Source: an uncultured Ectothiorhodospiraceae bacterium (GTDB lineage Bacteria; Pseudomonadota; Gammaproteobacteria; SZUA-152). Taken from it: a stretch of DNA of 64,000 nucleotides. Of this stretch, positions 5,092 through 56,883 are shown piece by piece (position 1 is the stretch's first letter; each line of letters opens with the position of its first letter). The stretch is from contig CAYNYJ010000002.1 of the NCBI GenBank assembly GCA_964401355.1, forward strand, positions 6,116 to 70,115. Reading direction: 5' to 3'. The translations under genes and the position numbers were made by a program. Below the pieces are notes generated by a model. The model saw only the letters and a program-made list of their open reading frames with translations. It did no database searches and was not told the origin of the DNA.

Positions 5092-6216
5092 TTATACGGG
5101 GGCGGTTGAGTGAGTGTGAAATAAATGCCAAAATTCAGCATTCGGCCAACGTTGTTCCGCCTGGTAATAATGGTGGCGTATTTTCTGATAATACCGATAA
5201 TCTGTTTTTATCGATTGCTCAGCACGGGGAAATCCGCTGTCGTCTCCCTGCAACTGTGCTTGCACAGCATAAGCTGCCATCATGCCGTTGTTTAGCGATT
5301 TCATAATGCCTGCCGATGTTATCGGATCATAGGTTGATGCCGCGTCACCAATGGCTATCCAGTTTTTTCCGCTAATCTTATCGAGTTGAAAACAGGGCAC
5401 ATTAAAAATTTTAAAGGAGTCGGGTTGGTAGTGTATCTGTAATATTTGTTTTGTTATTAGTATGGTTTTTTGCAATTGCTCAAACCAGGTAGAGATATTC
5501 CGCAGTTGCCGCTGTTTGATGATGGGAGCGGTCGAAGTAAAACTTAGTAACAAACGGTTTTCGGGTAAGCGGGCGGCATACCACCAACCTGTCTCACAAG
5601 CTTCTAAGTGAGTAAGTCGGGATACGGTTTGCTGTTTGTCATCGAGTTGAAATAGGGCGCTGATGCAAATTAACGGATGGTCGTGTTGTTTTTGGCTGTG
5701 TTGGCTGCGGGCAAATAATGCGTGTGATCCACTGGCATCAATGACCGTATCTGCCGTTACCTTTAGCAACGTGCCATCCGCGTGTTCCAAACTGATGTGA
5801 TAACCCTGTGCCGTCTGTTCCGCTTGTTTAAAATGGCATTGGGTTATCAAGTTGGCAGTACGTTGTTGAGTTTTATCGGCGAGTAAATGATTAAATTTTT
5901 GTCGATCGAGATGCCAGCCGTGGCCCAGTGGGCTGATGATACTATCGTTATAACCGCGTTTGTTGCTTCCCCAGTACGATACGCTGCCATAACATGGGTC
6001 ATGGTTTTGTTGCAAAAAGTCTTGATACAATTCCAGTTTCTGTAACAAGGGGCGGCAATTGGGTGGCAGGCTTTCACCTATTTGAAATTTTTTGTAATTG
6101 CCAGCCTCAACCACTAATACATCGGTGATGCCCAATTGCGATAATTTTATCGCGCAGCTACAGCCAGCAGGGCCGCCACCAATGATCACGCAAGCGTAGT
6201 GTTTTTCAGTGGTCAA
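5092..6216 (-). CDS. lodB: LodB/GoxB-like FAD-dependent flavoprotein (CTQ cofactor-maturation partner of LodA-type oxidases)
   Basis: CVIIGGGPAGCSCAIKL is a GxGxxG Rossmann motif. The C-terminal WIAIGDAASTYDPITSAGI is typical of halogenase/geranylgeranyl-reductase-like flavoproteins. At 374 aa and placed immediately downstream of the lodA-like gene, it reproduces the known lodAB arrangement. Confidence 0.7.
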   Translation of the reverse strand: MTTEKHYACVIIGGGPAGCSCAIKLSQLGITDVLVVEAGNYKKFQIGESLPPNCRPLLQKLELYQDFLQQNHDPCYGSVSYWGSNKRGYNDSIISPLGHGWHLDRQKFNHLLADKTQQRTANLITQCHFKQAEQTAQGYHISLEHADGTLLKVTADTVIDASGSHALFARSQHSQKQHDHPLICISALFQLDDKQQTVSRLTHLEACETGWWYAARLPENRLLLSFTSTAPIIKQRQLRNISTWFEQLQKTILITKQILQIHYQPDSFKIFNVPCFQLDKISGKNWIAIGDAASTYDPITSAGIMKSLNNGMMAAYAVQAQLQGDDSGFPRAEQSIKTDYRYYQKIRHHYYQAEQRWPNAEFWHLFHTHSTAPV

Positions 6217-6280
6217 AAATGATGCCGTAATTGATGAATGAATCCGGGTGGATATTGTCGCCTGGAAAACCTGCGGATGA

Positions 6281-8380
6281 TCAATTTTTTGGTGGATAGG
6301 TTTTATCAGTTACCTGATTGGGCCAGGCTTCAACCAGATTGCTTTTATCCTTGAGAAAATTACTGGCGACTTCCAAATAGTAATTCGGGTTGTATTCATT
6401 TTTATAGCCCTTAATTGCCGGCCCCTGAATCACGGTGCCGATGTTTTGCCAGTTATCCAATATATCGCGGCGTTGTTGATAGCGGCCGACGTTCATGGCG
6501 GGTAGGTTAAAGTTGTCACCTTGCTGTTGAATGGCTGCGGTGCCTTCGCCGCGTACAGAATAACGTTGTATGGGTAACTCGCCATTGTTCGCTACAAGAT
6601 CGTCAAATGTGTAAACCGCCACCGGGCGCTGAGCGGGCCAGGACCAAAATAAAGAGGTGTTTACATTGCCACTAAATACATTGTCTTCCGTCACGGCACC
6701 GCCGGGGTTGGGTGCTGGAGTATGAGTGGCACAGGAGTTGTAATCGGTGTGCCAGGGGATTGACATAAATTTGCACAGGTCGCCTGGTTCAACCGCATCG
6801 CTGCGTAATGGCGTATAACCTACGCCAAGAAAAGGGTTGGCGGTGGTGGCCTGACTGTAATCCATTGTTGCCTTGTTGATACGAAATGGGCCCACCGCCG
6901 GATTCGTCCAGTCCTGGTTGTACAGGTTGATATCCCGCACAATAAAGGTGAGGTCGATACCGGGACTAAAGCGTCCACCCAGGCAATTAAATAACACGGT
7001 TTTATCCAATGCCTCACCTGGCCCCAAGGGTAGAGATGAGGCTGCTTCACACAGACCGGCGCTCCATTGTTCCATAAAAAAATATTGGCTGTGGCTAAGG
7101 CTTAGAAAACTCTTGGCGGCATCACCCAATGACAGTGGCATTAATTTGCTGCCGACGGGGGCCGGTGAATTATCATTATTATTGGGGTTGCGAAGGAACG
7201 ACAGAATATCAATATTCGGCTTCTGTTCAGTTAACTGATCAAAATTTAAATGGCTCTTGATGGCTTTTTCCGGCAGATTGGTATTCCACATCTGTAAGGA
7301 CGCGGCACGCAAGGCGGGAAAAACATCATCATTAAAATAGGGTTTAAAACTTTTCTGATAAGCCTTGTTTTGATAGATCGCCGGGTTCAGGTTTAATTGT
7401 TCCAGCCAGGTGGTATACACATCATCCCATAGGCTCACGACATTTAAGGTTTGTGGTGCATAAGCCGGATCTGTGGCAACGACCCAGGCACTGTTTTTCA
7501 GTGTTCTGAAACTGCCGTCAGAAAATTTCAAGGTCGCCGTCACCGGCCCATCGGCGGTGTCATCCAACCAGTTATTATTATCCACATCGGCGTCAAGTTT
7601 GGCATTGGGGTCGGCATTCCCTTCGTTATCAAAACCACAGGCCTTACCAAATCCTCCTAATACCAGCAGTCGGCCAGTGTCTTCGATACGGAGGGAGCCC
7701 AGTGTGGTGATAGCTTCGCTGCCATTGGTGTTGCTCGTGGCATCTCCATCACTGCTAGGAAAACTGATGGGATAATCGGCTGCCACTACTTTTTGTTGAT
7801 CGGCGTCCCAATATGTTGCGGCGCTGGTTTTATCGAAATCAACCTGTTGAATGTCGTTGTGTATTGCGCGCGGTCCTGCATCGATGACCAGTTTTTTCAG
7901 CCGCTCTTTATCAGCAGGATCGGCTGAAGGAGGGAAATTGGGATTGCGTATCGGCGGAAAACCACCATTTTTGTATTGCTGGATGCCGGTGTTAGCGGCT
8001 TCATCTATTTCCCAGCAGTTGGCTTTTTTATTGGCCAGATGCACAGTCCAGATGATATCAACGACCTTTTTTCCATCTACCATGGAGTTAATGGTCACCT
8101 CGGTCCCCGCGTTACAAGGGTAGGTTGTTGCGTTGCTATTGTCGTACTGGTAGATACGAAATCGTGCGGCCTGCCGCTTCAGGCGGCCGTCACTATCACG
8201 TAGATCATCACTGGTGATGGTGGTGGTTTCGGTTCCGGGTTTTATCGGTAAACCACCGGTCAGTGTTGTATCGGTTTGTGGCATGCCAGCGCGAGTTTCC
8301 GGTGCCAAGTAATACTCTTTACTGTTACCGACACGGGCCATGCCGATTGCGGGATGGATGCGTAAGCTTGTGGTGCTCAT
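6281..8380 (-). CDS. lodA: LodA/GoxA-family cysteine-tryptophylquinone (CTQ) quinoprotein amino-acid oxidase (L-lysine-epsilon-oxidase / glycine-oxidase family)
   Basis: N-terminal LRIHPAIGMARVGNS, then IIWTVHLANKKANCWE, LRIEDTGRLLVLGGFG, IPWHTDYNSCATHT and FWSWPAQRP. These match my recollection of Marinomonas LodA (HPSIGVARLGN, EWTVHLANKKAAW, CPWQADFFNC, YWWPPQSPW). The product is 699 aa. Confidence 0.75.
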   Translation of the reverse strand: MSTTSLRIHPAIGMARVGNSKEYYLAPETRAGMPQTDTTLTGGLPIKPGTETTTITSDDLRDSDGRLKRQAARFRIYQYDNSNATTYPCNAGTEVTINSMVDGKKVVDIIWTVHLANKKANCWEIDEAANTGIQQYKNGGFPPIRNPNFPPSADPADKERLKKLVIDAGPRAIHNDIQQVDFDKTSAATYWDADQQKVVAADYPISFPSSDGDATSNTNGSEAITTLGSLRIEDTGRLLVLGGFGKACGFDNEGNADPNAKLDADVDNNNWLDDTADGPVTATLKFSDGSFRTLKNSAWVVATDPAYAPQTLNVVSLWDDVYTTWLEQLNLNPAIYQNKAYQKSFKPYFNDDVFPALRAASLQMWNTNLPEKAIKSHLNFDQLTEQKPNIDILSFLRNPNNNDNSPAPVGSKLMPLSLGDAAKSFLSLSHSQYFFMEQWSAGLCEAASSLPLGPGEALDKTVLFNCLGGRFSPGIDLTFIVRDINLYNQDWTNPAVGPFRINKATMDYSQATTANPFLGVGYTPLRSDAVEPGDLCKFMSIPWHTDYNSCATHTPAPNPGGAVTEDNVFSGNVNTSLFWSWPAQRPVAVYTFDDLVANNGELPIQRYSVRGEGTAAIQQQGDNFNLPAMNVGRYQQRRDILDNWQNIGTVIQGPAIKGYKNEYNPNYYLEVASNFLKDKSNLVEAWPNQVTDKTYPPKN

Positions 8381-17621: not shown

Positions 17622-19289
<1,668 letters not shown>

Positions 19290-19494: not shown

Positions 19495-21255
19495 ATGTCG
19501 GAACAATCCACTAAACCCAGTTGGACGGAGCTGCGCCAGCAGTACTGGCAGTTTGTGCAGTACGCATCGCCTGACAGGCGCTATTTTATGTTAGATATCG
19601 TCACTATCGTGATTTCTGTATTTACTAATACGGCGATGATCTGGTTGATGGGACAGCCGCTGAGCCTGATTCAGGCGGGAGAATATGAGGCCCTGATCGG
19701 CGTGTTGGGTTTGTTTCTCGGCGTCCTATTGGTTAATCAGGCTGCACAAATGGGCGGTGGCTGGTTAACTAACTGGTTGAATCTGCGCTTCATCGGGCGG
19801 GTACGAAATGCCATTATGTCGCGATTGTTAAGTTTGTCTTTTCCGGTAGCGGAGCAGTTGCCACGGGGCGATTTGCTGGCGCGCTTGAGTAATGATGTGG
19901 ATCGTATCAGTGCCATTCTGGTGGGGGCGCGTTTGATGCTGATCTCTCATTTACTGACCCTCACCTTGTATATCGGCATGTTGTTTTGGATCGATGTGCG
20001 TCTGGCGTTGATTGCGTTGGCGACGGTGCCTTTGTTTGTATTACATCAACGATTTTTTTCCGAGCGCAAGCGTCGTGCCACTGAGGGTTTTTTGAAAGCT
20101 AACGGGAAGTTGTTGGCCTTTGAAGAGCAGGGGCTGGCCAATCTGCGTGGCGTCAGTGCCAATGTTGCTGAGAGCCAAGTCACGGCCATGCACCAGAACG
20201 TGTTTGCCCGGACTTTCCGTTGGGCAGTGCGCGAAGGGGGGCTGGAGGTGGCCTTTGGGGTGAGTTTCACGGTGTTGATTTATGGGGTGGGGGTAATGAT
20301 TGCGCTGCTGGGTGTGGACGGCGTGCGCGATGGTTCGCTACCCGTGGGCTTGCTGGTGAGTTTCCTGCTGTACCTGGGGTATCTCACTGTGCCGGTGCGT
20401 GGCCTGGCGGAAATCACCTTTCAGTACGTCGGTAATGTACCCGCTACGCAGCGTATTCTGGAAATTATGAATGCCCAGCCTGCGGTGATGGACAACAGTG
20501 CGACAGCATTGGTCGTCAAAAAAGGGCGAATTGACATCGAAGCCCTGTCTTTTGCCTATCCCGGCGGAGAGAGCGTGTTGCACCACGCGCAATTGACGAT
20601 TCAGGGCGGCGAAACTGTGGCCTTGGTTGGGCCCAGTGGTTCGGGTAAATCCACCTTGGTCGCCTTGCTGCTGCGCTTTTATGATCCACAGCAGGGACGT
20701 ATTTTGGTGGATGAACAGGATTTACGCGATGTGAGCATTGCCTCGGTGCGTCAAAACATAGCAGTGGTGTGGCAGCAACCTTTTGTGCTCAACGATACGA
20801 TTCGTGCTCATCTGCGGATGGCCAAACCGGATGCCACCGAGCTGCAGATTATTGAAGCTTGTCAACGTAGCCATGCGTGGGAATTTATTGAGACCTTGCC
20901 GGCAGGGCTGGACTCCGTGCTGGGTGCCGGTGGTACGGAACTGTCTGGTGGCCAAAAACAGCGTCTGGCCATTGCTCAGGCTTTTTTGCGTGATGCGCCG
21001 ATCCTGATTCTGGATGAAGCTTCATCAGCGCTAGACAGCCAGTCTGAGCAGGTTATTGTGCAGGCGTTGGACGCATTACGTGCAGATCGCACGACATTAT
21101 TGATTGCGCATCGCCATTCGTCGATTCGCTCAGCGGATCGGGTGGTTTATTTTGAGGCTGACGGCACGCTCACCGTAGGCCGACACGATGAACTCATGGC
21201 GCAGCATCCGCAGTACCGCGAGGCTGTGCAATGGCAAACGACAGAACACGAGTGA
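19495..21255 (+). CDS. ABC transporter ATP-binding/permease fusion (MsbA-like exporter)
   Basis: An N-terminal 6-TM domain is followed by Walker A GPSGSGKST, the ABC signature LSGGQKQRLAIA and Walker B ILILDEA. Confidence 0.85.
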   Translation: MSEQSTKPSWTELRQQYWQFVQYASPDRRYFMLDIVTIVISVFTNTAMIWLMGQPLSLIQAGEYEALIGVLGLFLGVLLVNQAAQMGGGWLTNWLNLRFIGRVRNAIMSRLLSLSFPVAEQLPRGDLLARLSNDVDRISAILVGARLMLISHLLTLTLYIGMLFWIDVRLALIALATVPLFVLHQRFFSERKRRATEGFLKANGKLLAFEEQGLANLRGVSANVAESQVTAMHQNVFARTFRWAVREGGLEVAFGVSFTVLIYGVGVMIALLGVDGVRDGSLPVGLLVSFLLYLGYLTVPVRGLAEITFQYVGNVPATQRILEIMNAQPAVMDNSATALVVKKGRIDIEALSFAYPGGESVLHHAQLTIQGGETVALVGPSGSGKSTLVALLLRFYDPQQGRILVDEQDLRDVSIASVRQNIAVVWQQPFVLNDTIRAHLRMAKPDATELQIIEACQRSHAWEFIETLPAGLDSVLGAGGTELSGGQKQRLAIAQAFLRDAPILILDEASSALDSQSEQVIVQALDALRADRTTLLIAHRHSSIRSADRVVYFEADGTLTVGRHDELMAQHPQYREAVQWQTTEHE

Positions 21256-21664
21256 GCCGTTGCGGGAAACCGCAGTGATTGCCACTATCCATATTAAATG
21301 TTTGAGTTTTGCTGGTTAGCAGACGCTCCCCCCTCTTTACTATTTGCCCCTTCTTGCCCGGTGACGTCTATGGCAAGTGGTGGTTGCGACAGTTATCATT
21401 ATTGTATATAATTTAATCAGATTCAATGAGAAGGGTCGTAAGCAGTGTCGAAAATCTGACGCCTCGAATCGTGCACCCTAAGATCAAAATCGTACAGTTG
21501 ATGACGTATTGAACAACCGTGCAGGCGATGTGACCGCAGAATTTAATTTCTCTCTCAGTGAGGTTGACTGAAAATACTATCAGCAAGGGCGTTGGCCATG
21601 GGCTTATTCAGAGCCGTGGTGAGTGTGACTTTTTAATCCAGGTATTTTTGGTGCTGTGAGCGTC

Positions 21665-21781
21665 ATGCGCCGCTCGGTTATTAGCTCTTATGTCGACGGT
21701 ATCTCTGCGGGCTTTGCTGCGATAAATTTTTCTACCGGTGGCGTTGCCAACGGAGCTTCTGTCCTGGTCTGTGAAACGTAA
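21665..21781 (+). CDS. Candidate small peptide (38 aa: MRRSVISSYVDGISAGFAAINFSTGGVANGASVLVCET), a possible scaffold/precursor peptide for the downstream island
   Basis: ORF hand-translated from sequence. It lies about 180 bp upstream of the pqqD-like gene, has a Gly/Ala/Ser-rich C-terminal half ending in Cys-Glu-Thr, and only a weak ribosome-binding site. Confidence 0.2.
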   Translation: MRRSVISSYVDGISAGFAAINFSTGGVANGASVLVCET

Positions 21782-21882
21782 TGCCGTGTTTTTAAATGTT
21801 TGTATGTGTCGTGTCTGCGGTGCTCAACAGAGAAAAATCATATTGATATCCTCTTTTTTCAGCGAAAAATAGCGGGACAGTG

Positions 21883-21933
21883 ATGTTTAAATTCTTGCTG
21901 TCATATGGATGCCATATAAAAGTACAAAACTAA
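21883..21933 (+). CDS. Candidate micro-ORF (16 aa: MFKFLLSYGCHIKVQN) immediately upstream of the pqqD-like gene
   Basis: Hand-translated. It ends 30 nt before the PqqD-like start. By position it is analogous to pqqA in pqqA-D operons, but it lacks the PqqA E-x3-Y motif. Confidence 0.15.
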   Translation: MFKFLLSYGCHIKVQN

Positions 21934-21962
21934 ACGACTAAATATTTAAGGAGTATTGAACC

Positions 21963-22259
21963 ATGGAAGTCAATGCCAACACGGCTATTAACAATTTGCC
22001 AATGCAAGCGGCATTTTTGGATAATCGTTATTTGCAACATTTAGCCATTAGTGACAACGGTTTTGTCTTTGATCCCACCACAGGCCAAAGTTTTACCATG
22101 AATGAGATTGGCGTTGAATTGCTTCGCTTGTTTCAACAAGAAAGCAATATCGACACCATTGTGAGCTTGCAATATAAAAAATATAAAGTCGATACACAGG
22201 AAATTGAACGAGACATCGTGGAATTTGCCAGTAGTCTCAATCGACATTTTTATCGATGA
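21963..22259 (+). CDS. PqqD-family protein (RiPP recognition element / peptide chaperone)
   Basis: TMNEIGVELLRLFQQESNIDTIVSLQ...ERDIVEFASSL aligns with Klebsiella PqqD (LNETAAAILELVDGRRDVAAIIAEL...DDDVVEFLQ). The product is 98 aa with a strong AAGGAG ribosome-binding site. Confidence 0.7.
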   Translation: MEVNANTAINNLPMQAAFLDNRYLQHLAISDNGFVFDPTTGQSFTMNEIGVELLRLFQQESNIDTIVSLQYKKYKVDTQEIERDIVEFASSLNRHFYR

Positions 22260-23320
22260 GCAGCGTATTAACGATGAACATAACTGTTGCTATAACGGGG
22301 ATGAATTCTCAACCCGACAACCCCGGGCCTGGGTTGGCTGTTGCCCGGTGTTTAAAGGAGTCTGCGGAATTTAACGGTCGAATTATCGGTCTGGGTTACG
22401 ATGCGTTGGATGCAGGAATTTACCATAGCGAATACTGTGACGCAGGTTATTTATTACCTTACCCATCCAGCGAAAGCTTTGAACATGTTGACCGATTGCA
22501 ATCAATTCACGAAAAGGAACACATTGACGTATTGATTCCCTGTCTGGATTCGGAGATGCCCGGGATGATTCGTTTGCTTCCCTTGTTTGAAAAGATGGGG
22601 ATAAAAACCTGCCTGCCAACGTTGGAACAGCTGACAATGCGTAATAAAAATCGCTTGTCGGAATTGCTTGGCGACGGAGAAATGTCCTATCCCGAATCAA
22701 TTGATATCATCAATGTTGAATTTTTTCAAGGCTGTGAAAAGCAGGGTTGGACATATCCGTTTGTCGTAAAGGGCGTATTTTACGACGCAAAAATTGTTCA
22801 TAACATTGCGCAGGGTATTGCCGCATTTAACGCAATTTCTACTCAATGGGGTTTTCCGATAATTGTTCAGAAGCTCGTGCGTGGGCAGGAATACAACGTC
22901 GTCGCATTAGGTAATGGAGAAGGTGGCCTGGCGGGTATGGTTATGATGAAAAAAATGATACTGACCGAAAAAGGAAAGGCCAGTGCTGGAGTCAGTGTTT
23001 ATGATGAAGGCCTGCATCGGGTCTGCCTTGAAGTCATGAAAACACTGCGTTGGAAAGGGCCGATAGAATTCGAAGTGATGCGTGACAAACTTGGTAAGTA
23101 TCACCTTATCGAGATTAATCCCAGATTTCCGGCTTGGGTATATTTAACTGCTGGGGTGGGACAAAACCTCCCCATCAAATTGTTGAAGCTTATAGCCGGT
23201 GAGTCTATATCTGAGCTTCCTTCAACAAAAGCTGGGGTTTTGTTTATTCGGCACGCAATGGATTTAATAGTGACGATTGCCTCATTTGAGGCGGTCGCTA
23301 TTGAAGGTGGAACATCATAG
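22256..23320 (+). CDS. ATP-grasp family ligase
   Basis: YHLIEINPRFPAWVY is the ATP-grasp Mg/ATP motif (compare IEVNPR). PFVVKGVFYDAKIV is a central-domain lysine motif. The start overlaps the pqqD-like stop (ATGA). Confidence 0.7.
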   Translation: MSSVLTMNITVAITGMNSQPDNPGPGLAVARCLKESAEFNGRIIGLGYDALDAGIYHSEYCDAGYLLPYPSSESFEHVDRLQSIHEKEHIDVLIPCLDSEMPGMIRLLPLFEKMGIKTCLPTLEQLTMRNKNRLSELLGDGEMSYPESIDIINVEFFQGCEKQGWTYPFVVKGVFYDAKIVHNIAQGIAAFNAISTQWGFPIIVQKLVRGQEYNVVALGNGEGGLAGMVMMKKMILTEKGKASAGVSVYDEGLHRVCLEVMKTLRWKGPIEFEVMRDKLGKYHLIEINPRFPAWVYLTAGVGQNLPIKLLKLIAGESISELPSTKAGVLFIRHAMDLIVTIASFEAVAIEGGTS

Positions 23321-23417
23321 TCGTCGTTTTCGTTCTATTTGTCAGTTTGATGCCCGAATCCAGCGAGTTTCGTTAGAGAAAGAAGAATTTAATATTTTAT
23401 TTTTATAGGTGTGTTTA

Positions 23418-24902
23418 ATGAAAAATAATATTTCGCAACAAGAAGGGCAAGGCCAGGCAGAAATCACTTGGAGTAAGCCATCAATACTTCCATTGAAAGA
23501 TGGGACTATTAATAAGTTTGGTTCCAGGCCGTATGCAGAGACGCAGAGCGAGGTCGATGGTGTTGTCATCAATGATCTAATTGAAAAATATGGTTCGCCG
23601 CTTTTCGTCATTTCCGAAAAGAAGCAGCGTGATAATGCGCGCCGAATTCAGCGAGCATTCAGTTCGCGTTATCCCCATGTCCAATTCGGTTGGTCCTACA
23701 AAACAAATTACCTGGATGCTGTCTGTAATGTTTTTCATCAGGAAGGATTGTGGGCAGAAGTTGTTTCTGAATTTGAATACCAAAAAGCAAGAAATCTAGG
23801 GGTTCCCGGGCATAAAATAATCTTTAATGGTCCACATAAATCCAGGGGGATTCTGGAACAGGCCATTGAAGAAGGTGCGCTCATTCATATTGATCATCTG
23901 GATGAACTATTTCTTATCGACACGATTTCAGCTGAAAAGAAAAAAATGGTTTCCGTTGCTATTCGTCTCAATTTCGATACGGGTTATACCGAAAATTGGG
24001 GTCGCTTCGGATTCAATATTGAATCGGGCCAAGCCTTTGATGCCGCAGTGCATATTTCGAATAGCCAACACCTTGAACTGGTTGGGCTGCATAGCCATAT
24101 TGGCACGTTCATTACTGATGGTCGTGCCTATGTCAGTCAAATTAAAATAATGTGCAAGTTTATGGATGAAGTGGAATTAAAAACAAATTGTTCCATTGAT
24201 TACATTGATATTGGCGGGGGCTTGGCTTCGATGAATTCTCTGCAAGGAGCTTATTTACCGCCAGAACAATATATTCCCAGTATTGAACAATATGCGACGT
24301 TAATTTGTGATGCCTTGTTAAAGGAGACGCGGTCACGCAATGCAAATAAAGATAAAGGTTTGTTGTTGATACTGGAAACAGGCCGGGCAATGATTGATGA
24401 TGCTGAAGTATTGATAACTTCCGTCGTTGCCAATAAGCAATTGCCGGATGGTCGTCGTGCTTCAATTATGGATGCTGGTTTAAACCTGTTATTTACCAGT
24501 TTTTGGTATGACCATAAGATAGTGCCGACCCGGGAATTGCCGGGAGTGGCAGAAGAAACCGTGCTTTATGGGCCGCTGTGCATGAACATCGATGTGGTGA
24601 GAAAAAGCATTAAATTGCCACCGATGAAAATAGGAGAGCCCATGGTGATCAAACAGGTCGGTGCTTATAACAATACACAATGGATGCAATTTATTGAATA
24701 TCGTCCGAATGTAGTCATGGTTCATGAAGATAAATCTGTGTCGATTGTCAGAGAGGCCGAAAATTTGCAAACAATGATTGCACAGGATCGGTTACCGGCT
24801 CATTTATCTGACCCTTTCGTAGAGGTTTCCAAAGGTAAGGCAGCGCTTGTCGCTGAGGCGACGTTGACGGAAGTTGTTTTGGTTGAGTCCAATTCTACGT
24901 AA
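23418..24902 (+). CDS. PLP-dependent decarboxylase, Orn/DAP/Arg decarboxylase family (fold type III, diaminopimelate-decarboxylase-like)
   Basis: SPLFVISEKKQRDNARRIQRAF...QFGWSYKTNYLDAVCNVFHQEGLWAEVVSEFEYQKA...IIFNGPHKS contains the PLP-lysine region and the conserved Gly-rich PLP-phosphate-binding motif IDIGGGL. Confidence 0.75.
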   Translation: MKNNISQQEGQGQAEITWSKPSILPLKDGTINKFGSRPYAETQSEVDGVVINDLIEKYGSPLFVISEKKQRDNARRIQRAFSSRYPHVQFGWSYKTNYLDAVCNVFHQEGLWAEVVSEFEYQKARNLGVPGHKIIFNGPHKSRGILEQAIEEGALIHIDHLDELFLIDTISAEKKKMVSVAIRLNFDTGYTENWGRFGFNIESGQAFDAAVHISNSQHLELVGLHSHIGTFITDGRAYVSQIKIMCKFMDEVELKTNCSIDYIDIGGGLASMNSLQGAYLPPEQYIPSIEQYATLICDALLKETRSRNANKDKGLLLILETGRAMIDDAEVLITSVVANKQLPDGRRASIMDAGLNLLFTSFWYDHKIVPTRELPGVAEETVLYGPLCMNIDVVRKSIKLPPMKIGEPMVIKQVGAYNNTQWMQFIEYRPNVVMVHEDKSVSIVREAENLQTMIAQDRLPAHLSDPFVEVSKGKAALVAEATLTEVVLVESNST

Positions 24903-27111
24903 ACCAGGGGCTGTTCCATTGCTAAAGACGAACTGGTGTCATTTTAAGGATATTGCCAAAGCTTATTCCGGCATTTTATTTTTGGAGCACCCCTTGGTTG
25001 GGGTATTGTTCATTGCACTGACTTTTTGGTCGCCGTTAACGGGTATGGCTGGACTGTTGTGCGCGCTGACAAGTATGTTGATATGTGTATTTTTAAAGCT
25101 GCCCCATATTGGTAGCAAAGCACATATTCTGAATAGTGTGTTGACGGGCTTATCACTGGGTGCCTTGTTTCAACTCAGTGGCCAGGCTTGGGCGTTTGTT
25201 ATTGTTGGCGGATTACTCACGACATTTTTGTCTATTCTGATGGCTGATATATTGTGGCGTCGAACAGGGCTGCCAGCCGTGTGTCTTCCCTTTATTGTGA
25301 GTGCTGCAATATTATCCCTGGTGGTCCGGGAATATGTACCGAGCACCGACTTTAGCGCGATTGGCTGGTTGACTGATGTCTGGATTCATCCCTGGGTGGA
25401 TTTATTTTTTAGAACCTTGTCCGCAACCCTATTTTCACCAAATCCTGTGATTGGGTTATTGGTGTTCATCGCTATCATTATTCAATCCCGTTACCTGGGG
25501 TTGCTAGCGATTGCTGGTTTTTCGTTGGGACTTTTTTTACTTAATATACTGTCTGGCAGTCATCCGACAGAATTTTATGTGTGGACGTGTTTTAACTTTG
25601 TTCTTACCGCATTGGCCGTGGGTGGAATTTATACTGTGCCTGATCGGAGCAGTTTTATTTATGCCATGTTTGGCGTATCGGTATCGGTATTCTTTGTTAT
25701 CGTGATACAAGATTTGATGCTGGTATATCATTTACCGGTCATGGCATTACCTTTTGTGGCCGCAACTTTATTGTGCATTGCTGTGCTTCAAAGACGTAGC
25801 AGTATGGAATCGCCGTGGTTGTGTGCCACTCCGGGGCTGCCGGAAAATGATTATGAGCAAAGACGCTTGGCGCGTACGCGATGTGGCGAACCTAACAGCA
25901 TCCCCTTGCTGTTACCTTTTTACGGCACCTGGAATGTGTATCAGGGTTTTGATGGCCGCCACACTCATAAGACGCCCTGGAATCATGCCGTTGATTTTTA
26001 CATTACTGAAAAAGGCTTAAGTTATTGTGCTCAAGGCTTTCGACTTGAGGATTACTATTGTTTTGGATTACCGATTATATCGCCGGTCTATGGTGAAGTG
26101 ATAGCAACCGCGGATTCGGTGTCTGACAATATTCCAGGCGCAGTTAACGTGGATGATAATTGGGGTAATTTTATCCTTATTTATTTGAGCACCGGGCATT
26201 GCATTATGTTGGCGCATCTCAAGCATTTAAGTATTAAAGTTAATGTGGGTGATCAGGTGACACCAAAAACGGAGTTGGCCGCTTGTGGTAATTCGGGGCG
26301 CTCACCGCAACCCCATTTACATATTCATTTGCAGAAAGATGCAGAGATTGGAAGTCCGACACAGTTATTCCACTTTTGCAGTGTTCTGGAAAATGTGGGG
26401 ATACAAAATACACACTATAAGCTGATCAGCAGACCCGTGGATAACGTCAATATTCAGGCCGCAGCTCATGCTCGGGGGTTGTCCAATATTCACCAACACC
26501 TCCCCGTGGGTCGCTATTTCACTTACAAGCTAATAGATCCGGAGACCAACGCCAGCAGCGTACGTCGCCTATTGGTGGAGGTGACGTTAATGGGCCAGTT
26601 CCGTTTGGTAAGTGACTCTGGTGCCAGTTCCGCTTTTGAGGAAGTCAATGGTGTACTTGCCTTTTATGACAGGCAAGGTCCAGCAGATCAATTATTGGAT
26701 ATGTTGTTACTGTCCTATGGTTTGACGCCATTAACAGAACTTGCGCAACAATGGCAGGATTCACCGTCGGTAAAATTGTTGCCGTTGCAGAGTGGGGAAA
26801 AAATATTGCTGGCATTCCGTTTCATTTTGGGTGTTGGGCTTGAGAGCCAATATCAGCGTCAGTGGGATTCTGCAAAGAATATGTGGGTACAACGCAGTAC
26901 TCATACATTGCGAATTGGCCCGCGTACTTTGGTGGCCGAAGCCGTTATAGAATTGGACCGGGCATTTGTCAGTAATGATATGACGTTGTCATTTAACGGT
27001 TGCACCTGGCGTGCACAATTATTGAATAATGGTTTAATAAAAGATCATGGTATACCGGGCTGGCGTAAACAGCATGTTGATGACGCTAGCTCAAACTTGT
27101 CGACGGTTTAG
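24874..27111 (+). CDS. Fusion protein: N-terminal urea-transporter (UT)-like polytopic membrane domain + C-terminal M23 (LytM/lysostaphin-type) metallopeptidase-like domain
   Basis: N-terminal YSGILFLEHPLVGVLFIALTFWSPLTGMAGLLCALTSML follows the UT-family pattern, and there are about 10 predicted TM helices. C-terminal WNHAVDF ... GNSGRSPQPHLHIHL matches the M23 HxxxD / HxH zinc-ligand motifs. Confidence 0.6.
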   Translation: MFWLSPILRKPGAVPLLKTNWCHFKDIAKAYSGILFLEHPLVGVLFIALTFWSPLTGMAGLLCALTSMLICVFLKLPHIGSKAHILNSVLTGLSLGALFQLSGQAWAFVIVGGLLTTFLSILMADILWRRTGLPAVCLPFIVSAAILSLVVREYVPSTDFSAIGWLTDVWIHPWVDLFFRTLSATLFSPNPVIGLLVFIAIIIQSRYLGLLAIAGFSLGLFLLNILSGSHPTEFYVWTCFNFVLTALAVGGIYTVPDRSSFIYAMFGVSVSVFFVIVIQDLMLVYHLPVMALPFVAATLLCIAVLQRRSSMESPWLCATPGLPENDYEQRRLARTRCGEPNSIPLLLPFYGTWNVYQGFDGRHTHKTPWNHAVDFYITEKGLSYCAQGFRLEDYYCFGLPIISPVYGEVIATADSVSDNIPGAVNVDDNWGNFILIYLSTGHCIMLAHLKHLSIKVNVGDQVTPKTELAACGNSGRSPQPHLHIHLQKDAEIGSPTQLFHFCSVLENVGIQNTHYKLISRPVDNVNIQAAAHARGLSNIHQHLPVGRYFTYKLIDPETNASSVRRLLVEVTLMGQFRLVSDSGASSAFEEVNGVLAFYDRQGPADQLLDMLLLSYGLTPLTELAQQWQDSPSVKLLPLQSGEKILLAFRFILGVGLESQYQRQWDSAKNMWVQRSTHTLRIGPRTLVAEAVIELDRAFVSNDMTLSFNGCTWRAQLLNNGLIKDHGIPGWRKQHVDDASSNLSTV

Positions 27112-27144
27112 CGATTGAACGGTTTATTTTTCTGAACAATAAAA

Positions 27145-28524
27145 ATGGAATTGGAGTTCATGTTTTACCCATCGATGACTATAAAAATGTACTGGTCCAT
27201 TTCTTCAGTCGGGTTTACGATAGCGTTATTGTTGCTCACAGTTAATCCAGCTCTGGCAATGGACATAGAAGAGATTTATGAACTGGCGCTGGAAACCGAC
27301 CATGTGATTCGGAAGGCAACAGCGATTCGTGCCGGTTCGCAAGAAGCTGTTCAGCAAAGCAGAGCCAGATTCTGGCCGAAAATGTCCGCCAGTACCCTTT
27401 ATACGCAAAACTCACAAGATCGCACTGTGCATGATTTTACCAATACCGTGCTTCTAAATAGTAAGCCTGAGTTTGCCAGTAGCGGCTACAGCATAAACAT
27501 TACCCAGCCCCTGTTTGATTACGATGCGATTGTTAATAATCAACAAGCGTGGGCGACACATGAATTGGCAGATGTTCAATACAATGAAACGGGTCATTTC
27601 CTGGTGCTGCGGGTTATTACCGCTTACATGGGGGTATTGTCTGCCAAACAAGGAATTCACTATCGCGAACTGGAAGTACAGGCGCTAAAAAAACAACTTG
27701 AGCGAATGGAGTACCGCTTGAATTTGGGTATTAGCGCAAAAATTGATGTCAGTGAGGCACAGGCTGGGTATGACCAGGCGTTGGCGAATCGCACCAGTGC
27801 CAGCATCCGTCTGTCTATTACCAATGAAGCCTTACGTCAAATTACGGGTCAGTTGCACGATAATCTTGATCCGCTCCAAGTTGCAGCATCTTTCAATATG
27901 CCAAATCCCAGTAATCTGACTTTTTGGATTAAAATGGCACATGAAAATAATTATCAACTTCAAATTGCACAATCCCAGCTTAAGCTGGCACAGATCGGGA
28001 TTAAAAAACAGGGTGCCTCACGTTTTCCTTATCTTTCACTGATAGCCACGTATAATTATTACAATAATCTGGCATTAGACTACGCTGGCGTTGAATTGGA
28101 AACGGGTTCCATTACGGCACGTTTGGATTGGGATTTCTATCAAGGCGGGTTGGTCAGTTCCCGCATTCGTCAAGCGAAATATTATAAAGATCAGGTTGAT
28201 ATTTCTCTGCAACAGCAGAAAAGTCTGGTGGAGCGACAAGTCCGTGATGCGTATTACATCCTGGTGGGTGGAGTGAATCGTATCGGTGAGTTGGAACAAT
28301 CCATAAAATCGCAAAAAGTGCTGTTGGAAGCAAACAAGGCTGGCTATGAAACGGGAGCCAGAACCAGTTTTGATGTTTTGAATGCGCGGACAAATCTATA
28401 CACTTTACGGAGAAAGCTGGCGCAAGCTCGACATGACCATGTATTACATCATGCTATTTTGAAATACCGCGCAGGCATGCTTGTGGTTGAGGACTTGGCA
28501 TACATCAACCAAAGCTTGGAATAG
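27145..28524 (+). CDS. TolC-family outer-membrane efflux channel
   Basis: N-terminal signal peptide, two repeated alpha-helical coiled-coil/beta-barrel halves of TolC/OMF topology, and a C-terminal YRAGMLVVEDL characteristic of outer-membrane factors. Confidence 0.7.
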   Translation: MELEFMFYPSMTIKMYWSISSVGFTIALLLLTVNPALAMDIEEIYELALETDHVIRKATAIRAGSQEAVQQSRARFWPKMSASTLYTQNSQDRTVHDFTNTVLLNSKPEFASSGYSINITQPLFDYDAIVNNQQAWATHELADVQYNETGHFLVLRVITAYMGVLSAKQGIHYRELEVQALKKQLERMEYRLNLGISAKIDVSEAQAGYDQALANRTSASIRLSITNEALRQITGQLHDNLDPLQVAASFNMPNPSNLTFWIKMAHENNYQLQIAQSQLKLAQIGIKKQGASRFPYLSLIATYNYYNNLALDYAGVELETGSITARLDWDFYQGGLVSSRIRQAKYYKDQVDISLQQQKSLVERQVRDAYYILVGGVNRIGELEQSIKSQKVLLEANKAGYETGARTSFDVLNARTNLYTLRRKLAQARHDHVLHHAILKYRAGMLVVEDLAYINQSLE

Positions 28525-28671
28525 GGTGCTTCAAATTTAGCCAATATTTCCCTGTGGTCTTGTTCGTGTTGGCGCGGCACGGCGAATTCATGACTCAGTT
28601 TCGGTCTGTTCGAAGACAGCAGGGGCTAATAACAGAAGGGTAGTCAATTCTCGGGTACTACATGACAGCGA

Positions 28672-28860
28672 TTAGATTTGTTCAGAAGCCTGCACCAGCC
28701 TGTTTTTTATTGTATTAAAAAGCTGTACGAACACTTTGTCTAGGTGTTCCTTGTTCATATTTTTCGGCTTGGTGTGCCCCCGTTGACGTAAGGCCATTGT
28801 GTTTTTGAGCTTGGAAATGTGACTGGAGTGCAGAGCCCGTTCACCGGAAGAAAAATACAC
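28672..28860 (-). CDS. Small basic hypothetical protein (62 aa)
   Basis: ORF only; Lys/His-rich. Confidence 0.25.
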   Translation of the reverse strand: MYFSSGERALHSSHISKLKNTMALRQRGHTKPKNMNKEHLDKVFVQLFNTIKNRLVQASEQI

Positions 28861-29341
28861 AGAAATATTTCTTGAGGCATGACGGGCTAGCGAGTTGCGC
28901 GAGTCTTTTTTCAGGATTTTATTATCTATATCCGGGGCTATTCAAGGAATTAAGTCGCTGCAAATACGCTAATTTTGGTGTCTTCGTGGGGAAACTGATT
29001 TATTGCCTGCTTGCTGAAAATAGCGCGGGAAACGGCTGCCGTGGATTCGTGCGGTATACCAAAATGAGGGGCTGCGCGGAGTATAATTGGGTTAACGTTG
29101 AGTTTAAAATCGGTTGTTCAAAAACAGGCATTCCAAAAAAAACAAGAAAGGAACCCTATAAAACTGCTGATAGAGTTCCTTTCCATCTTTTTTACGTGGG
29201 GTTTTAAGCCACATAGGTGTAAAGCTACATGCGAAAAGCAGAATGTAGGTTACACAGGCGTTGCTTTCGCAACAACATCCGTTACCAGATGCAGACTACA
29301 CGAGTGTGTAGCAGTATAGTTTGTTTAGCTTGAGAGTCGGC

Positions 29342-29491
29342 TTACATGCCGCCGCCCATGCCTCCAGCGCCCATACCGGCACCCATGCCGCCGCCCATGC
29401 CGCCGCCCATGCCGCCCATACCCATTCCGCCCATGCCGCCTCTGCCACCCATGCCGCCTCGACCACCACCCATTCCACCCATTCCACCCAT
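29342..29491 (-). CDS. Gly/Met-repeat peptide (49 aa: [49 protein letters not shown]; 59 aa if the upstream ATG at 29521 is used)
   Basis: Hand-translated on the minus strand; it is missing from the ORF track because it is under 60 aa. A strong GGAGG Shine-Dalgarno sits 8 nt upstream of the internal ATG. The peptide is composed almost exclusively of (G)GM repeats. Confidence 0.5.
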   Translation of the reverse strand: MGGMGGMGGGRGGMGGRGGMGGMGMGGMGGGMGGGMGAGMGAGGMGGGM

Positions 29492-30103
29492 GATAGAACC
29501 TCCAAAGTAGTTGTATTGCATTTACATGGTTGGCCAACGTCATGTACAGGATGCCCAGTATTTTGATGCTGACTAAAATACCGTGGTATCAACAGTACGT
29601 GCAGTTAGCACGAAATCAAGCAGAAACAACTCTGGTTGATCCCATTGTCTGCCACAACTGCGGCGGACAACGTCGAAAAAAGTAACAGAGTGATCATTTA
29701 TTGTCAATTTAAAGGATGGAGGTCAGCAGTGAAAATAAGGGTTGTAACTTATTGATTTTTAAAGATGATAAGAATTTTTCTTTGTAGATATCGCTGATGA
29801 TACTGAGTTAAATAGCAATATTACGCATAAGAAATAGTCTGTATAGGTAATTTATTACCGCAAACATGTTTTTTGGTAATTAATAACAATATATTGTAAG
29901 CGTTAATGTTCGCATGTCTGGCGAGTATTTCAGAAAAAGTGATTTATGCATCAACCGGGTGCATTGTGATGTGATTGATGCGGACATTTTTGCAAGCCCG
30001 TGTTATGTGCTTGTTTTATGACATAATCGTTTCGCCGATGTGTTTGTTAACGGACGCTTAACGGTGGCATTGAGCCAAAAAAATAAAAAAAGGATTTTGT
30101 CAT

Positions 30104-52680: not shown

Positions 52681-53236
52681 TGTGGCGTTAGTAGCCTGTC
52701 GGGCGAGGGCTACAAGGTGTATCTCGACAACAGCCTTCGTGCGTCACCTACCATCAAGGCTTGGGTAGAGTGCGCGATGGACAATGTCTATCCTGCACCC
52801 AGGAAGCTGAAACTATAATTAAGAGGCGCAATATTTGTTTCTGTGGGTTTAATCGTTCAGGGTAAATTCCCCGTCGCCCGCCCTAAGCGCCTACTTGTTG
52901 GTGGCGTTGCGAAAAGCGTAGGTCAGGTTGCACCAACTATTAACCCGGCTTCAAAATAGATCATCCTGATCCATTGTTGAGTCGCCCGCAAAACACCGGC
53001 GCAAATATGTGAATTTGCTTGTGTTTTGCGGGCTCGCGTTGGCTATCGCCAACGGCGGTGCGTCCCTGCACCGCACTATTAATCCAGCCTATAAAGCGGT
53101 CGGATTAATACCTGACAGCAAGTTGTCACGTAGCCTTCGGCAACGTGACCTACAGAAGTCTAATACCCCCGTAGCAGTAGCTTGCTGCGGGGTAGTCTAT
53201 TGCTACGGTATACTTCGTCCCTTGGGGTGGGGATGG

Positions 53237-53854
53237 TTAATGCAGCGGTTCCATTTCGATAAACTCGCCGGTATCCTGCACCACGCCATCGGCCTGCGCA
53301 TCCATGTAGCTTACATAGGCCTGCGGGTCATCGGCGTCAACAGGCACACCCGTGTCCTGGTGCGCAGCATTGCCATCCACATACATTTGCGGATTATCAA
53401 CATCGATAAATTCGCCCGTGTCTTGAATATCGCCCTGAGTGACGGCGCTGTTTGCTTGGGCATTCAGATAAACGACATAAGCCTGCGGGTCATCGGCGTC
53501 GATAAATTCTCCCGTATCTTGCACCAAGCCATCGTCAGCGGCATAGACCCCAGCATCGGGCCATGCCTCGTCCATCGGCAAGAGCGCGGGGAGTTCCGAC
53601 TGTGGGCTGGCAGTCACCGAATCCGACGGTGGCCCGCCGAAGGCGTTCCCGGATTCGACCGGCGCTACGGCAGGCGGAAAAATACTGGCCACCGTTTCCT
53701 CACCGGCTGCCTGAGGTAGCACAACATGCGGCGCATCGCCATGTCTTTGGTCATCAGCTTGGTCATTAGTGATGAAATACCACGACCCGGCCCCCGACAC
53801 CCAGCCGACCAACAGCGCAACAATAATTGGCCGTATTTTATTCATGGGCTGCAT
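53237..53854 (-). CDS. Membrane-anchored acidic repeat protein (QDTGEFIDADDPQAYV repeats)
   Basis: N-terminal TM helix IIVALLVGWVSGAGSWYF, then four copies of a (Q)DTG(E/V)(F/P)(I/V)D(A/V)D(D/N)PQ(A/M)YV motif. The start overlaps the upstream gene's stop by 1 nt. Confidence 0.55.
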   Translation of the reverse strand: MQPMNKIRPIIVALLVGWVSGAGSWYFITNDQADDQRHGDAPHVVLPQAAGEETVASIFPPAVAPVESGNAFGGPPSDSVTASPQSELPALLPMDEAWPDAGVYAADDGLVQDTGEFIDADDPQAYVVYLNAQANSAVTQGDIQDTGEFIDVDNPQMYVDGNAAHQDTGVPVDADDPQAYVSYMDAQADGVVQDTGEFIEMEPLH

Positions 53855-55959: not shown

Positions 55960-56008
55960 ATCGCGTCCCTTCAGGAAACAGGCCCGACCACTACTTCAGG
56001 CCTAATCG

Positions 56009-56386
56009 CTACTTGTAGATATCTATCCGTCGCGCATAGCAATAACCATTGTGTTTTTTGGTGTTATCCACGTAGAGGGTGACTCGATAACCCAGCGCCA
56101 GCGCCAGTTGCGCCGACTCGAACTTGCGTTGGCCGGCATCCTTGTTGTTGTAAGTGCCATCGCAACTGAAGGTCAGCCAACGGCTGGGGCAGTTGGCGAT
56201 ATAGTCGCTTAGCGGTTTGTCGATCAGGATCATGCAGTCACCAAGAGACCCCGCATCACTGAGCGTTTGAGTCACTTTGACCCCGCTAAACCACACCACT
56301 TCAGCACTCGCCACCCCGGAACCCAGCACCGCCAGACCTGCCACCGCACCCAGAAACACCTGCTTCCACCGGTTCCACTTCAACAT
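56009..56386 (-). CDS. Small secreted cysteine-containing protein (about 125 aa), possibly a lectin/toxin-B-subunit-like protein
   Basis: Signal peptide MLKWNRWKQVFLGAVAGLAVLGSGVASA. Four Cys in the mature part. AAGGAGG ribosome-binding site 6 nt upstream of the ATG. It is the first gene of a three-gene minus-strand operon. Confidence 0.5.
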   Translation of the reverse strand: MLKWNRWKQVFLGAVAGLAVLGSGVASAEVVWFSGVKVTQTLSDAGSLGDCMILIDKPLSDYIANCPSRWLTFSCDGTYNNKDAGQRKFESAQLALALGYRVTLYVDNTKKHNGYCYARRIDIYK

Positions 56387-56883
56387 CGCTAACCTCCTTA
56401 TCTGTCTGTCATGGCCTGCTATCGGCCAAAAAATTCTATTGGTTTGATTGCTCACTGTATTTCACAAACTGTATTTCACAATAAGAACCCAATATCGGCA
56501 AGCCAAACCAAGTTCCTCGTTTGGTAGGTTGGTGGTGAGCCTGCGAACCCCAACACGACCGGTTCCGTTGGGGTTCGCAGGCTCACCACCAACCTACCCG
56601 CAAACACCATTTTATTCACTATGCCAGCATTGGTCTAGCGCCCTTTTTAAAGCAAGGCTTGTGACGCTCTTCACATGGCGCCCAGGCGGCACAACCCACA
56701 CGATGTCCATGAAAATACGGTAATCCCCCACCCAGGAGAAGTGTAAATATTACCATAAATTAATTGTGGCTTATGTGATATGTTTCGGCCAATGCCCGAT
56801 GCCGTGGCTGTTCCTGTTCCTTAAAGCAGGCAACGCACCAGGGCTGAGCAGTAGGGGCTAAACACAGGAGTAACAGGGACGAA

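Follow-up and report, generated by a model that had tools for sequence, protein, structure and literature searches.

A conserved and overlooked gene predicted to encode a small glycine/methionine peptide in uncultured Gammaproteobacteria

Here we analyzed a stretch of 64,000 nucleotides (nt) from an uncultured Ectothiorhodospiraceae bacterium (contig CAYNYJ010000002.1), called the window below, for a minus-strand open reading frame (ORF) whose predicted product consists almost entirely of glycine and methionine. By sequence comparison this reading frame, called the GM ORF after the one-letter codes of the two residues, is a real and conserved gene that has been overlooked by annotation. That it is a genuine small-protein gene, and that the peptide is translated, is very likely. 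The best overall explanation combines a transcription unit of its own, a translated Gly/Met peptide and a role driven by composition; this combination as a whole is held tentatively, a little below even confidence. The parts of the unit are given in the following lines with the basis of each.

29342–29491, minus strand: GM ORF, 49 codons and TAA (sequence, family conservation and codon evidence)
29499–29503, minus strand: Shine-Dalgarno sequence GGAGG, 7 nt before the ATG (sequence)
29492–29671, minus strand: predicted 5′ untranslated region (UTR) of about 180 nt (folds of 15 orthologous UTRs)
29679–29707, minus strand: predicted sigma-70-type promoter, with −35 TTGACA at 29707–29702, a 17-nt spacer and a TG-extended −10 element TGTTACTTT at 29687–29679
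29734–29757, minus strand: conserved A/T-rich element upstream of the promoter (upstream alignment of 15 loci)
29194–29312, minus strand: structured 3′ UTR with five predicted hairpins (folding and covariation)
29135–29187, minus strand: predicted intrinsic terminator, with an A-rich stretch before it, the stem GGAAAGGAAC...GUUCCUUUC and then a U-tract

The window sequence reads from an ATG at 29491–29489 to a TAA at 29344–29342. The 49-residue peptide has 32 Gly (65%), 13 Met (27%), 2 Arg and 2 Ala, with Gly or Met at 45 of the 49 positions (92%). The original prediction had given the same Gly/Met dominance at about 63% and 29%, percentages which are replaced by the present ones, and had placed the GGAGG 8 nt from the ATG, where the spacing is 7 nt (29503–29499). 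It had also pointed to an in-frame ATG further upstream at 29521. This ATG exists; in the relatives the 10-codon extension is out of frame, has no ATG or carries a stop. As the extension is not conserved in frame, the start is taken to be the ATG at 29491 and the product the 49-residue form. The N-terminus MGGMGGMGGGR has no hydrophobic segment, and no signal peptide was found in the peptide sequence. The Gly/Met repeat begins at residue 2, with no conserved leader region before it, and MxM, MxxM and MxxxM spacings are read throughout. The single-sequence AlphaFold model showed no regular secondary structure at low confidence (pLDDT 59), a result that is compatible with disorder or polyproline II and is not diagnostic of either.

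At the DNA level the ORF is a degenerate tandem repeat with units of 9, 12, 15 and 18 nt. All six frames are open across this repeat, so the open frame alone is no proof of a gene. The plus-strand His/Ala/Thr-rich ORF (29321–29566) and Pro/Met/Ile-rich ORF (29346–29510) are mirror images which any (GGN)n-ATG repeat must yield. Neither their starts nor any ribosome-binding sites are conserved, ATA accounts for 3 of the 6 Ile codons in these frames against 0 of 33 in groEL, and the frames lie downstream of a hairpin and T-run that read on the plus strand. With this poor codon usage, and with promoter and terminator facing the minus strand, the plus-strand ORF is taken not to be the product; it had already been judged the less likely one to be expressed.

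Chance does not account for the feature. The sequence is as originally claimed, and the same type of ORF, with its own ribosome-binding site, was found in about 25 independent related loci (numbered here with the prefix L), all from uncultured Gammaproteobacteria. A Shine-Dalgarno sequence (AGGAG, GGAGG or GGGGA) stands shortly upstream of the ATG in every locus except the decayed copy of L040. The relatives were first reached through a neighbouring 1054-aa MFS/spermidine-synthase-like protein, whose relatives (77–79% identity) are on contigs of metagenome-assembled genomes (MAGs) labelled Chromatiales and Ectothiorhodospiraceae. L002 and L003 have Gly/Met ORFs of 52 and 55 aa at the same position and on the same strand, which likewise end in MGGGM-TAA, and L002 has a second paralogue (MGQGQGMGQ...GGMGGGM). 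The metagenome DNA-pattern scan for a coding sequence of GGMGGGM-stop returned 35 loci, about 20 of which are stand-alone Gly/Met ORFs of 27–64 codons, each with an AGGAG/GGAGG-type site near the ATG; the others are tails of thermosomes or unrelated proteins. The second route, free of the bias of the search pattern, was started from orthologues of a neighbouring ABC exporter, and here a GM-type ORF was present at the expected intergenic position in three of three informative loci. These are L044 with MGGGGMGGGGGMGGGGRGGGMGGGGM, L045 with a 64-aa Gly-rich form and a promoter and 3′ hairpins as in the window, and L047 with two GM-type genes, one of which has a (TPxP)n linker.

What is conserved across the family is composition only, namely Gly runs interspersed with Met, MG at the N-terminus and, in most cases, MGGGM at the C-terminus. 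The spacing of Met is not conserved, some members are nearly pure poly-Gly (L045, L047), and the in-frame inserts (IDMGA)n, (AP)n and (GQ)n of the variants are all in frame with the C-terminal MGGGM-stop. Tandem paralogues on the minus strand of L002 (4449–4547) and L047 (7873–8028 and 8303–8494) come in (GQ)-rich, nearly pure poly-Gly and (TPxP)n-linker flavours. The family accommodates large changes provided that the Gly-rich, Met-punctuated ends stay. On these sequences the GM genes are a conserved, unannotated family of uncultured Gammaproteobacteria related to the Ectothiorhodospiraceae and Chromatiales MAGs.

Conventional searches do not reveal this family. Gene finders skip the GM ORF or call other frames. 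Ten members that were looked up exactly in a collection of 15 billion proteins were all absent; phmmer with the GM peptide, by word-index search and by full scan of 1.84 billion representatives, gave no match; and four members had no meaningful match in Pfam or NCBIfam at an E-value up to 10. The composition correction of HMMER makes profile and protein searches insensitive to such low-complexity sequence, and these empty results are no proof of absence. Full-text literature searches returned no paper on free-standing Gly/Met peptides. The scan of viral contigs gave only Gly/Met tails on large phage proteins, among them an 831-aa protein in IMG/VR (L052 3350–3373, L053 1843–1866) which ends in ...GGMGGGM. 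Archaeal-type thermosomes (L020, L032) have the same ending, which means that Gly/Met tails are not confined to GroEL.

The repeat itself is variable. The JGI contig Ga0348266_1000859 (L043) is 99.77% identical to 22 kb of the window, and 8 of its 11 mismatches, together with a 17-nt gap, are inside the GM ORF (window 29345–29435 against L043 14325–14403) and shift its frame. This difference may be real hypervariability or phase variation, or it may be an assembly artefact. The neighbouring protein in L038 is 96% identical, yet the GM repeat pattern is clearly different, so that the repeat either evolves fast or is mis-assembled while its composition is retained. In L040 the copy has decayed to MGMGQDFDMGSSDMGSGMGSGGM, its ribosome-binding site is lost and the hairpins have decayed too.

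Codon usage was examined for evidence of translation. In 21 members of the family, Gly is written as GGC (353), GGT (264), GGA (49) and GGG (2), that is, two GGG codons in 668. In this genome GGG makes up 0% of the Gly codons in groEL and in the GM ORF and 8–29% in the ordinary genes sampled; GGA makes up 2% in groEL. Since the avoidance of GGG is shared with the highly expressed groEL, unlike ordinary genes, the expression level of the peptide is probably high. The recurrent third residue, Arg, is spelled with five codons across the family (CGA, AGA, CGC, AGG and CGT), which argues that the amino acid, and not the RNA sequence, is what selection acts on. Close relatives are distinguished almost exclusively by third-position changes: between L010 and L019 there are nine third-position differences and one first- or second-position difference over 61 codons, and the UTRs of the two look nearly identical by eye in the printed sequences. 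A canonical G-quadruplex motif, GGGCGGAATGGGTATGGGCGGCATGGG, is present in the ORF RNA and coding strand (window 29406–29432, minus strand), and longer G-runs in the ORF are limited by the near-total avoidance of GGG codons.

The GM locus is, on comparative evidence, an independent minus-strand transcription unit of roughly 540 nt. The TTGACA is matched in 14 of the 15 aligned upstream regions and the TGnTAnnTT element is conserved in 13, with a predicted transcription start near 29672. The promoter was overlooked by a simple promoter scan, the −10 hexamer having matches at three of six positions, and was revealed by the comparative alignment. Sigma-32 and sigma-54 promoters and a CIRCE operator were considered, and were rejected on the spacing and sequence seen in this alignment. 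The palindromic A/T-rich element, some 30 nt upstream of the −35 hexamer, fits the consensus WATCAANNNNTTR of integration host factor (IHF) at 29757–29745 and has the palindrome AATAAG-N8-CTTATT at 29753–29734; a protein may bind here. The 5′ UTR folds into H1 (29671–29644), H2 (29643–29612, loop GUUGUUU) and a small third hairpin (29611–29599), and H1 and H2 are kept across the 15 folded orthologous UTRs despite stem sequences that differ between lineages. An RNA thermometer was considered for this region and rejected, as the folds do not consistently mask the ribosome-binding site.

The 3′ UTR, of about 200 nt, has a minimum free energy of −65.3 kcal/mol (z = −5.6) and folds into P1 (29312–29295), P2 (29292–29275), P3 (29274–29259, with a GNRA-type loop), P4 (29255–29217) and P5 (29214–29194). 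Over 13 orthologous 3′ UTRs 95% of the cells were paired, and compensatory changes were seen at 11 pairs, against 5.2 ± 1.4 in column shuffles and 1–3 in slid controls. P2, P3 and the terminator are the best-supported structures. Multi-hairpin 3′ UTRs orthologous to window 29135–29312 occur in L002, L003, L008–L010, L019, L023, L025, L027, L029, L038, L039, L044 and L045. The terminator stem sequence is kept even in the L002 paralogue, and given the T-run on the plus strand the terminator could work in both directions; it was overlooked by a simple terminator scan, its loop being longer than 8 nt, and was found by comparative alignment. An amino-acid attenuator leader was rejected, as the ORF is followed by a strong terminator and, in the window, L003, L009 and L019, by convergent genes. 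Rfam has no family for the window or for seven related loci at gathering and permissive thresholds, and only chance-level matches to the terminator appeared at an E-value up to 10. The original prediction did not mention the conserved promoter, the structured UTRs or the linkage to the ABC exporter.

One clade of 15 loci shares this promoter and these UTRs, and the RNA architecture is restricted to it. The GM genes of L005, L016, L030, L031, L034 and L047 have unrelated or minimal UTRs, and the Gly/Met ORF is kept there, which argues that the peptide and not the RNA is the common functional product.

The genes around the unit follow a conserved backbone of groES, groEL, ABC exporter, GM gene (convergent), MFS/spermidine synthase, Usp and cytochrome c7. 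The following neighbours are needed for the argument.

17640–19289, plus strand: groEL with a normal Gly-Met tail (comparison and backbone member)
19495–21255, plus strand: MsbA-like fused permease/ATPase ABC exporter (Pfam ABC_membrane and ABC_tran)
21963–28524, plus strand: inserted operon for PqqD-like, ATP-grasp, pyridoxal-phosphate (PLP) decarboxylase, urea-transporter+M23 and TolC-like proteins (Pfam)

The DegP-Hsp20 pair fills the interval between the ABC gene and the GM gene in L002 (1976–4164), where it stands beside the GM gene, and in L044 (7935–9936). Hsp20 adjoins the GM gene in L029 too, and a Usp gene is near it in the window. The interval, on the 3′ side of the GM gene and its terminator, is an insertion hotspot: in the window it holds the 7.9-kb PqqD island (limits about 21256–29137), and in L040, from 6903 onward, the PqqD island followed by type I restriction-modification and defence genes.

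The role of the product is less firmly placed than the gene. It is possible, though doubtful enough to be held tentatively, that the GM peptide is a composition-driven, methionine-displaying peptide of a stress or chaperone type. The product would be a free flexible chain that displays methionine thioethers, a stand-alone analogue of the (GGM)n tail of GroEL that is three- to four-fold longer. It would act through composition and not through a fold, by soft hydrophobic or thioether contacts to non-native proteins, or alternatively as a "methionine sponge" that takes up oxidants or soft metals in stress, sacrificially or as a ligand, and the adjacent MsbA-like exporter may carry it out of the cytoplasm. 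This function is favoured on account of the likeness to the GroEL tail, the codon usage of high expression and the neighbourhood of chaperone and stress genes, in which groES, groEL and the ABC gene recur beside the GM gene.

Several points weigh against this explanation. The chaperone link is one of synteny and could be simple inheritance in one clade. The promoter appears constitutive and not sigma-32-like, and thus gives no sign of heat-shock regulation. None of the GM genes was seen to have an msrA/B/P or cop/cus/pco gene beside it. The frameshift of L043 and the decay of L040 may mean that the gene is dispensable or unstable. The third-position pattern is partly inherent to any (GGN)n repeat and is supportive rather than decisive. 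The low-complexity sequences are invisible to profile searches, and the distribution seen may therefore be incomplete.

If the peptide is made, it would be among the most compositionally extreme bacterial proteins, with two amino acids at 92%, and the first free-standing counterpart of the Gly-Met tail of GroEL, whose role is debated. Such a peptide would also allow the cellular role of a bare (G)nM chain to be studied in a natural setting, be it chaperone-like contacts, buffering of oxidants or metals, or export. The family also exposes a blind spot, being missed entirely by gene finders and profile searches.

The comparison with the GroEL tail, which had been drawn from composition, is apt: in the window groEL stands 10 kb upstream of the GM gene, and where relatives lack the insertion the distance is two genes. 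The tails of GroEL consist only of Gly and Met, are flexible and partly polyproline II, and are functionally important (PMC12571646, PMC11978752). Like the GM peptide, the (GGM)n tail of GroEL/Hsp60 is made of Gly and Met, is flexible or prone to polyproline II, has a Met end and belongs to the same genome and neighbourhood. It is, however, an appendage of 13–19 residues on a 548-aa chaperonin subunit, present seven-fold inside the cage, whereas the GM peptide would be a free chain of 26–64 residues that lacks a Cpn60 domain, and its gene is on the opposite strand and has a separate promoter, ribosome-binding site and terminator. The GM ORF is not part of a Cpn60 (PF00118) polypeptide: it has its own Shine-Dalgarno sequence and ATG, with only short unrelated ORFs upstream on the minus strand. 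Origin from a groEL 3′ end was considered as well; the likeness is confined to a TAAGC behind the stop, too little for such a claim.

MrpX of Azospira suillum is a Met-rich periplasmic hypochlorite sink that is recycled by YedY, and a precedent for a small Met-rich protein in such a role (PMC4436054). It is likewise a small protein whose function resides in methionine content rather than fold (20% Met, against 27% in the GM peptide). MrpX has a signal peptide, 44% charged residues, a yedYZ (MsrP-type) operon and induction by SigF/NrsF (PMC4436054). The GM peptide has, by contrast, no signal peptide, almost no charge, no Msr neighbour and an apparently constitutive sigma-70 promoter. No methionine sulfoxide reductase (yedYZ/msrPQ, msrA/B) was present among the annotated neighbours in the window and eight context loci, part of the window ORFs having been scanned. 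Apart from abductin we know of no further class of natural polypeptides in which Gly and Met dominate. The likeness of abductin, from bivalve hinge ligaments (cited in PMC12571646), is in composition only; it is an extracellular eukaryotic structural elastomer, much longer and with Phe-containing repeats.

The Gly-rich class II microcins, and MccJ25 with its exporter McjD and TolC, share with the GM locus a small Gly-rich ribosomal peptide near an ABC exporter, and a TolC-like gene is near in the window. The locus differs from them in having no double-glycine leader, C39 domain, membrane-fusion protein, immunity gene or lasso-peptide enzymes, and its exporter is convergent. With no Cpn60 body, signal peptide, Msr partner, leader or C39 exporter, the GM peptide is placed outside the known families: it lacks defining features of each of the GroEL tail, MrpX and the microcins, and may act alike while being a member of none.

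Among the alternatives, it is unlikely that the peptide is exported or processed, as cargo of the MsbA-like exporter and, where the PqqD island is present, as a substrate of that island as well. This would yield a Met-rich peptide that is secreted, or else small Gly/Met fragments, similar to a microcin or to peptides that are made on ribosomes and then modified after translation (RiPPs). In 12 loci an orthologue of the 586-aa ABC protein (48–85% identity) stands no more than 3 kb from the GM gene; one of these is L030, with the GM gene directly upstream of it on the same strand. A functional link of the two genes may exist. The linkage may also be inherited synteny, the genes being convergent rather than co-transcribed; a C39 peptidase domain is absent from the ABC protein, and the adjacent genes include none for a membrane-fusion protein. 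None of the NCBIfam equivalogs reaches its cut-off for this protein, and the gene recorded for it in the database uses a later start. The conserved extreme C-terminus (G)GMGGGM speaks for export, C-terminal signals being typical of type I secretion, whereas the peptide has no conserved or double-glycine leader.

The island operon encodes a PqqD-like protein, an ATPgrasp_Ter-like ligase, a PLP decarboxylase of the Orn/DAP/Arg type and a protein in which a urea-transporter membrane domain is fused to an M23 peptidase, and the operon ends with a TolC-like protein or with an outer-membrane-like protein of about 330 aa and a TPR protein. The fusion has more than 440 homologues and the operon is widespread; a literature search for the PqqD/ATP-grasp/M23/urea-transporter operon returned nothing relevant. 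Glycyl-glycine endopeptidases occur among M23 peptidases, a point in favour of processing, as is the absence of any other candidate precursor ORF, none being found in a search for a conserved one upstream of PqqD. Three of the eight island copies examined adjoin a GM gene (the window, L031, in which all genes are on one strand, and L040), far above chance for a gene with one or two copies per genome; a PqqD-like protein and modifying enzymes beside the peptide gene would give it the setting of RiPPs that depend on a recognition element, in these three loci and not in most GM loci. The co-occurrence is above chance and is not obligatory. Five of the eight copies (L041, L042, L048, L049 and L050) have no GM gene within 10 kb, the island is an insertion with three different orientations relative to the GM gene, and the 3′ side of that gene receives other insertions as well (DegP-Hsp20 in L002 and L044, restriction-modification genes in L040). 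The peptide is moreover free of Ser, Thr, Lys, Asp and Glu, the residues used by known ATP-grasp RiPP chemistry. The earlier suggestion of a precursor peptide for the adjacent island is thus weak, most GM loci being without the island and the leader absent. It is distinctly improbable that the peptide is a dedicated cargo and substrate, exported by the ABC protein, bound by the PqqD-like protein, cut at Gly-Gly by the urea-transporter–M23 fusion and tailored by the ligase and decarboxylase. If this were true, it would represent a new class of ribosomal, leaderless, low-complexity secreted product, for example an extracellular Met-rich redox or metal buffer or small Gly/Met-derived metabolites.

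Another explanation, to which we give a low probability, is that the function is at the level of RNA: a structured regulatory RNA of the kind of an Hfq-type 3′-UTR small RNA (sRNA), or a G-rich repeat able to titrate an RNA-binding protein or to fold into G-quadruplexes, with the ORF incidental or the RNA dual-function. In one clade the 5′ and 3′ UTRs are better conserved than the ORF. The transcript shares with the terminator-ending, 3′-UTR-derived sRNAs of Gammaproteobacteria a conserved structured 3′ UTR with covarying hairpins, an A-rich stretch and a U-tailed intrinsic terminator, although no Rfam family matches it. The G-quadruplex motif in the ORF RNA and the joint decay of ORF, ribosome-binding site and hairpins in L040 also fit. 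Against this, Gly/Met ORF and ribosome-binding site are kept in the six loci with unrelated or minimal UTRs, Arg is written with five codons, GGG is avoided just as in groEL, and the (IDMGA)n, (AP)n and (GQ)n inserts all hold the frame to the C-terminal MGGGM-stop. The structured UTRs are a candidate for a new RNA motif or a 3′-UTR-derived small RNA, and the RNA may lend stability or a second function in the 15-locus clade, beside a peptide that would be the product common to all.

It is improbable that the peptide is a buffer of Cu(I) or Ag(I), in which it would serve as a methionine-only soft-metal ligand. Methionine-only Cu(I) sites are known in CusF and PcoC/CopC. They are known in CTR1 as well (PMC8867124). 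Apart from the MxM, MxxM and MxxxM spacings throughout the peptide, some family members have Asp-rich (IDMGx)n inserts which would suit this function. Such copper sites are, however, typically extracytoplasmic, whereas a signal peptide is absent here; none of the loci examined has a gene for copper resistance or copper sensing next to the GM gene; and with Met spacing not conserved and the L045 and L047 members nearly pure poly-Gly, the metal binding first suggested for the peptide has nothing beyond its MxM/MxxM spacing to recommend it.

It is very improbable that the ORF is no functional gene at all and instead a slippage-prone tandem repeat, what is left of a groEL 3′ end, or the antisense strand of a His/Ala- or Pro-rich ORF on the plus strand. 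Six open frames, a repeat that is hypervariable between near-identical contigs and gene finders that pass over it or call other frames would agree with this. Over many loci, however, the position and orientation of promoter, ribosome-binding site, start, stop and terminator are conserved; Cpn60 homology is absent upstream; and neither a start nor a ribosome-binding site is conserved for the plus-strand frames, which use the rare ATA for Ile and stand downstream of a hairpin-plus-T-run terminator.

Three further observations were made in the window. In comparison with the JGI contig, the TolC-like gene has a 24-nt in-frame indel (27372–27395). At 5092–8380 on the minus strand a gene for an L-lysine epsilon-oxidase like LodA stands beside that for a tryptophan-halogenase-like flavoprotein, a pairing that is typical of quinone-cofactor amino-acid oxidases. 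In the region 53000–64000 the G+C content rises up to 0.55–0.62, the GC skew changes sign and the genes go to the minus strand; these changes may mark a strand-switch region or a separate segment of the genome.

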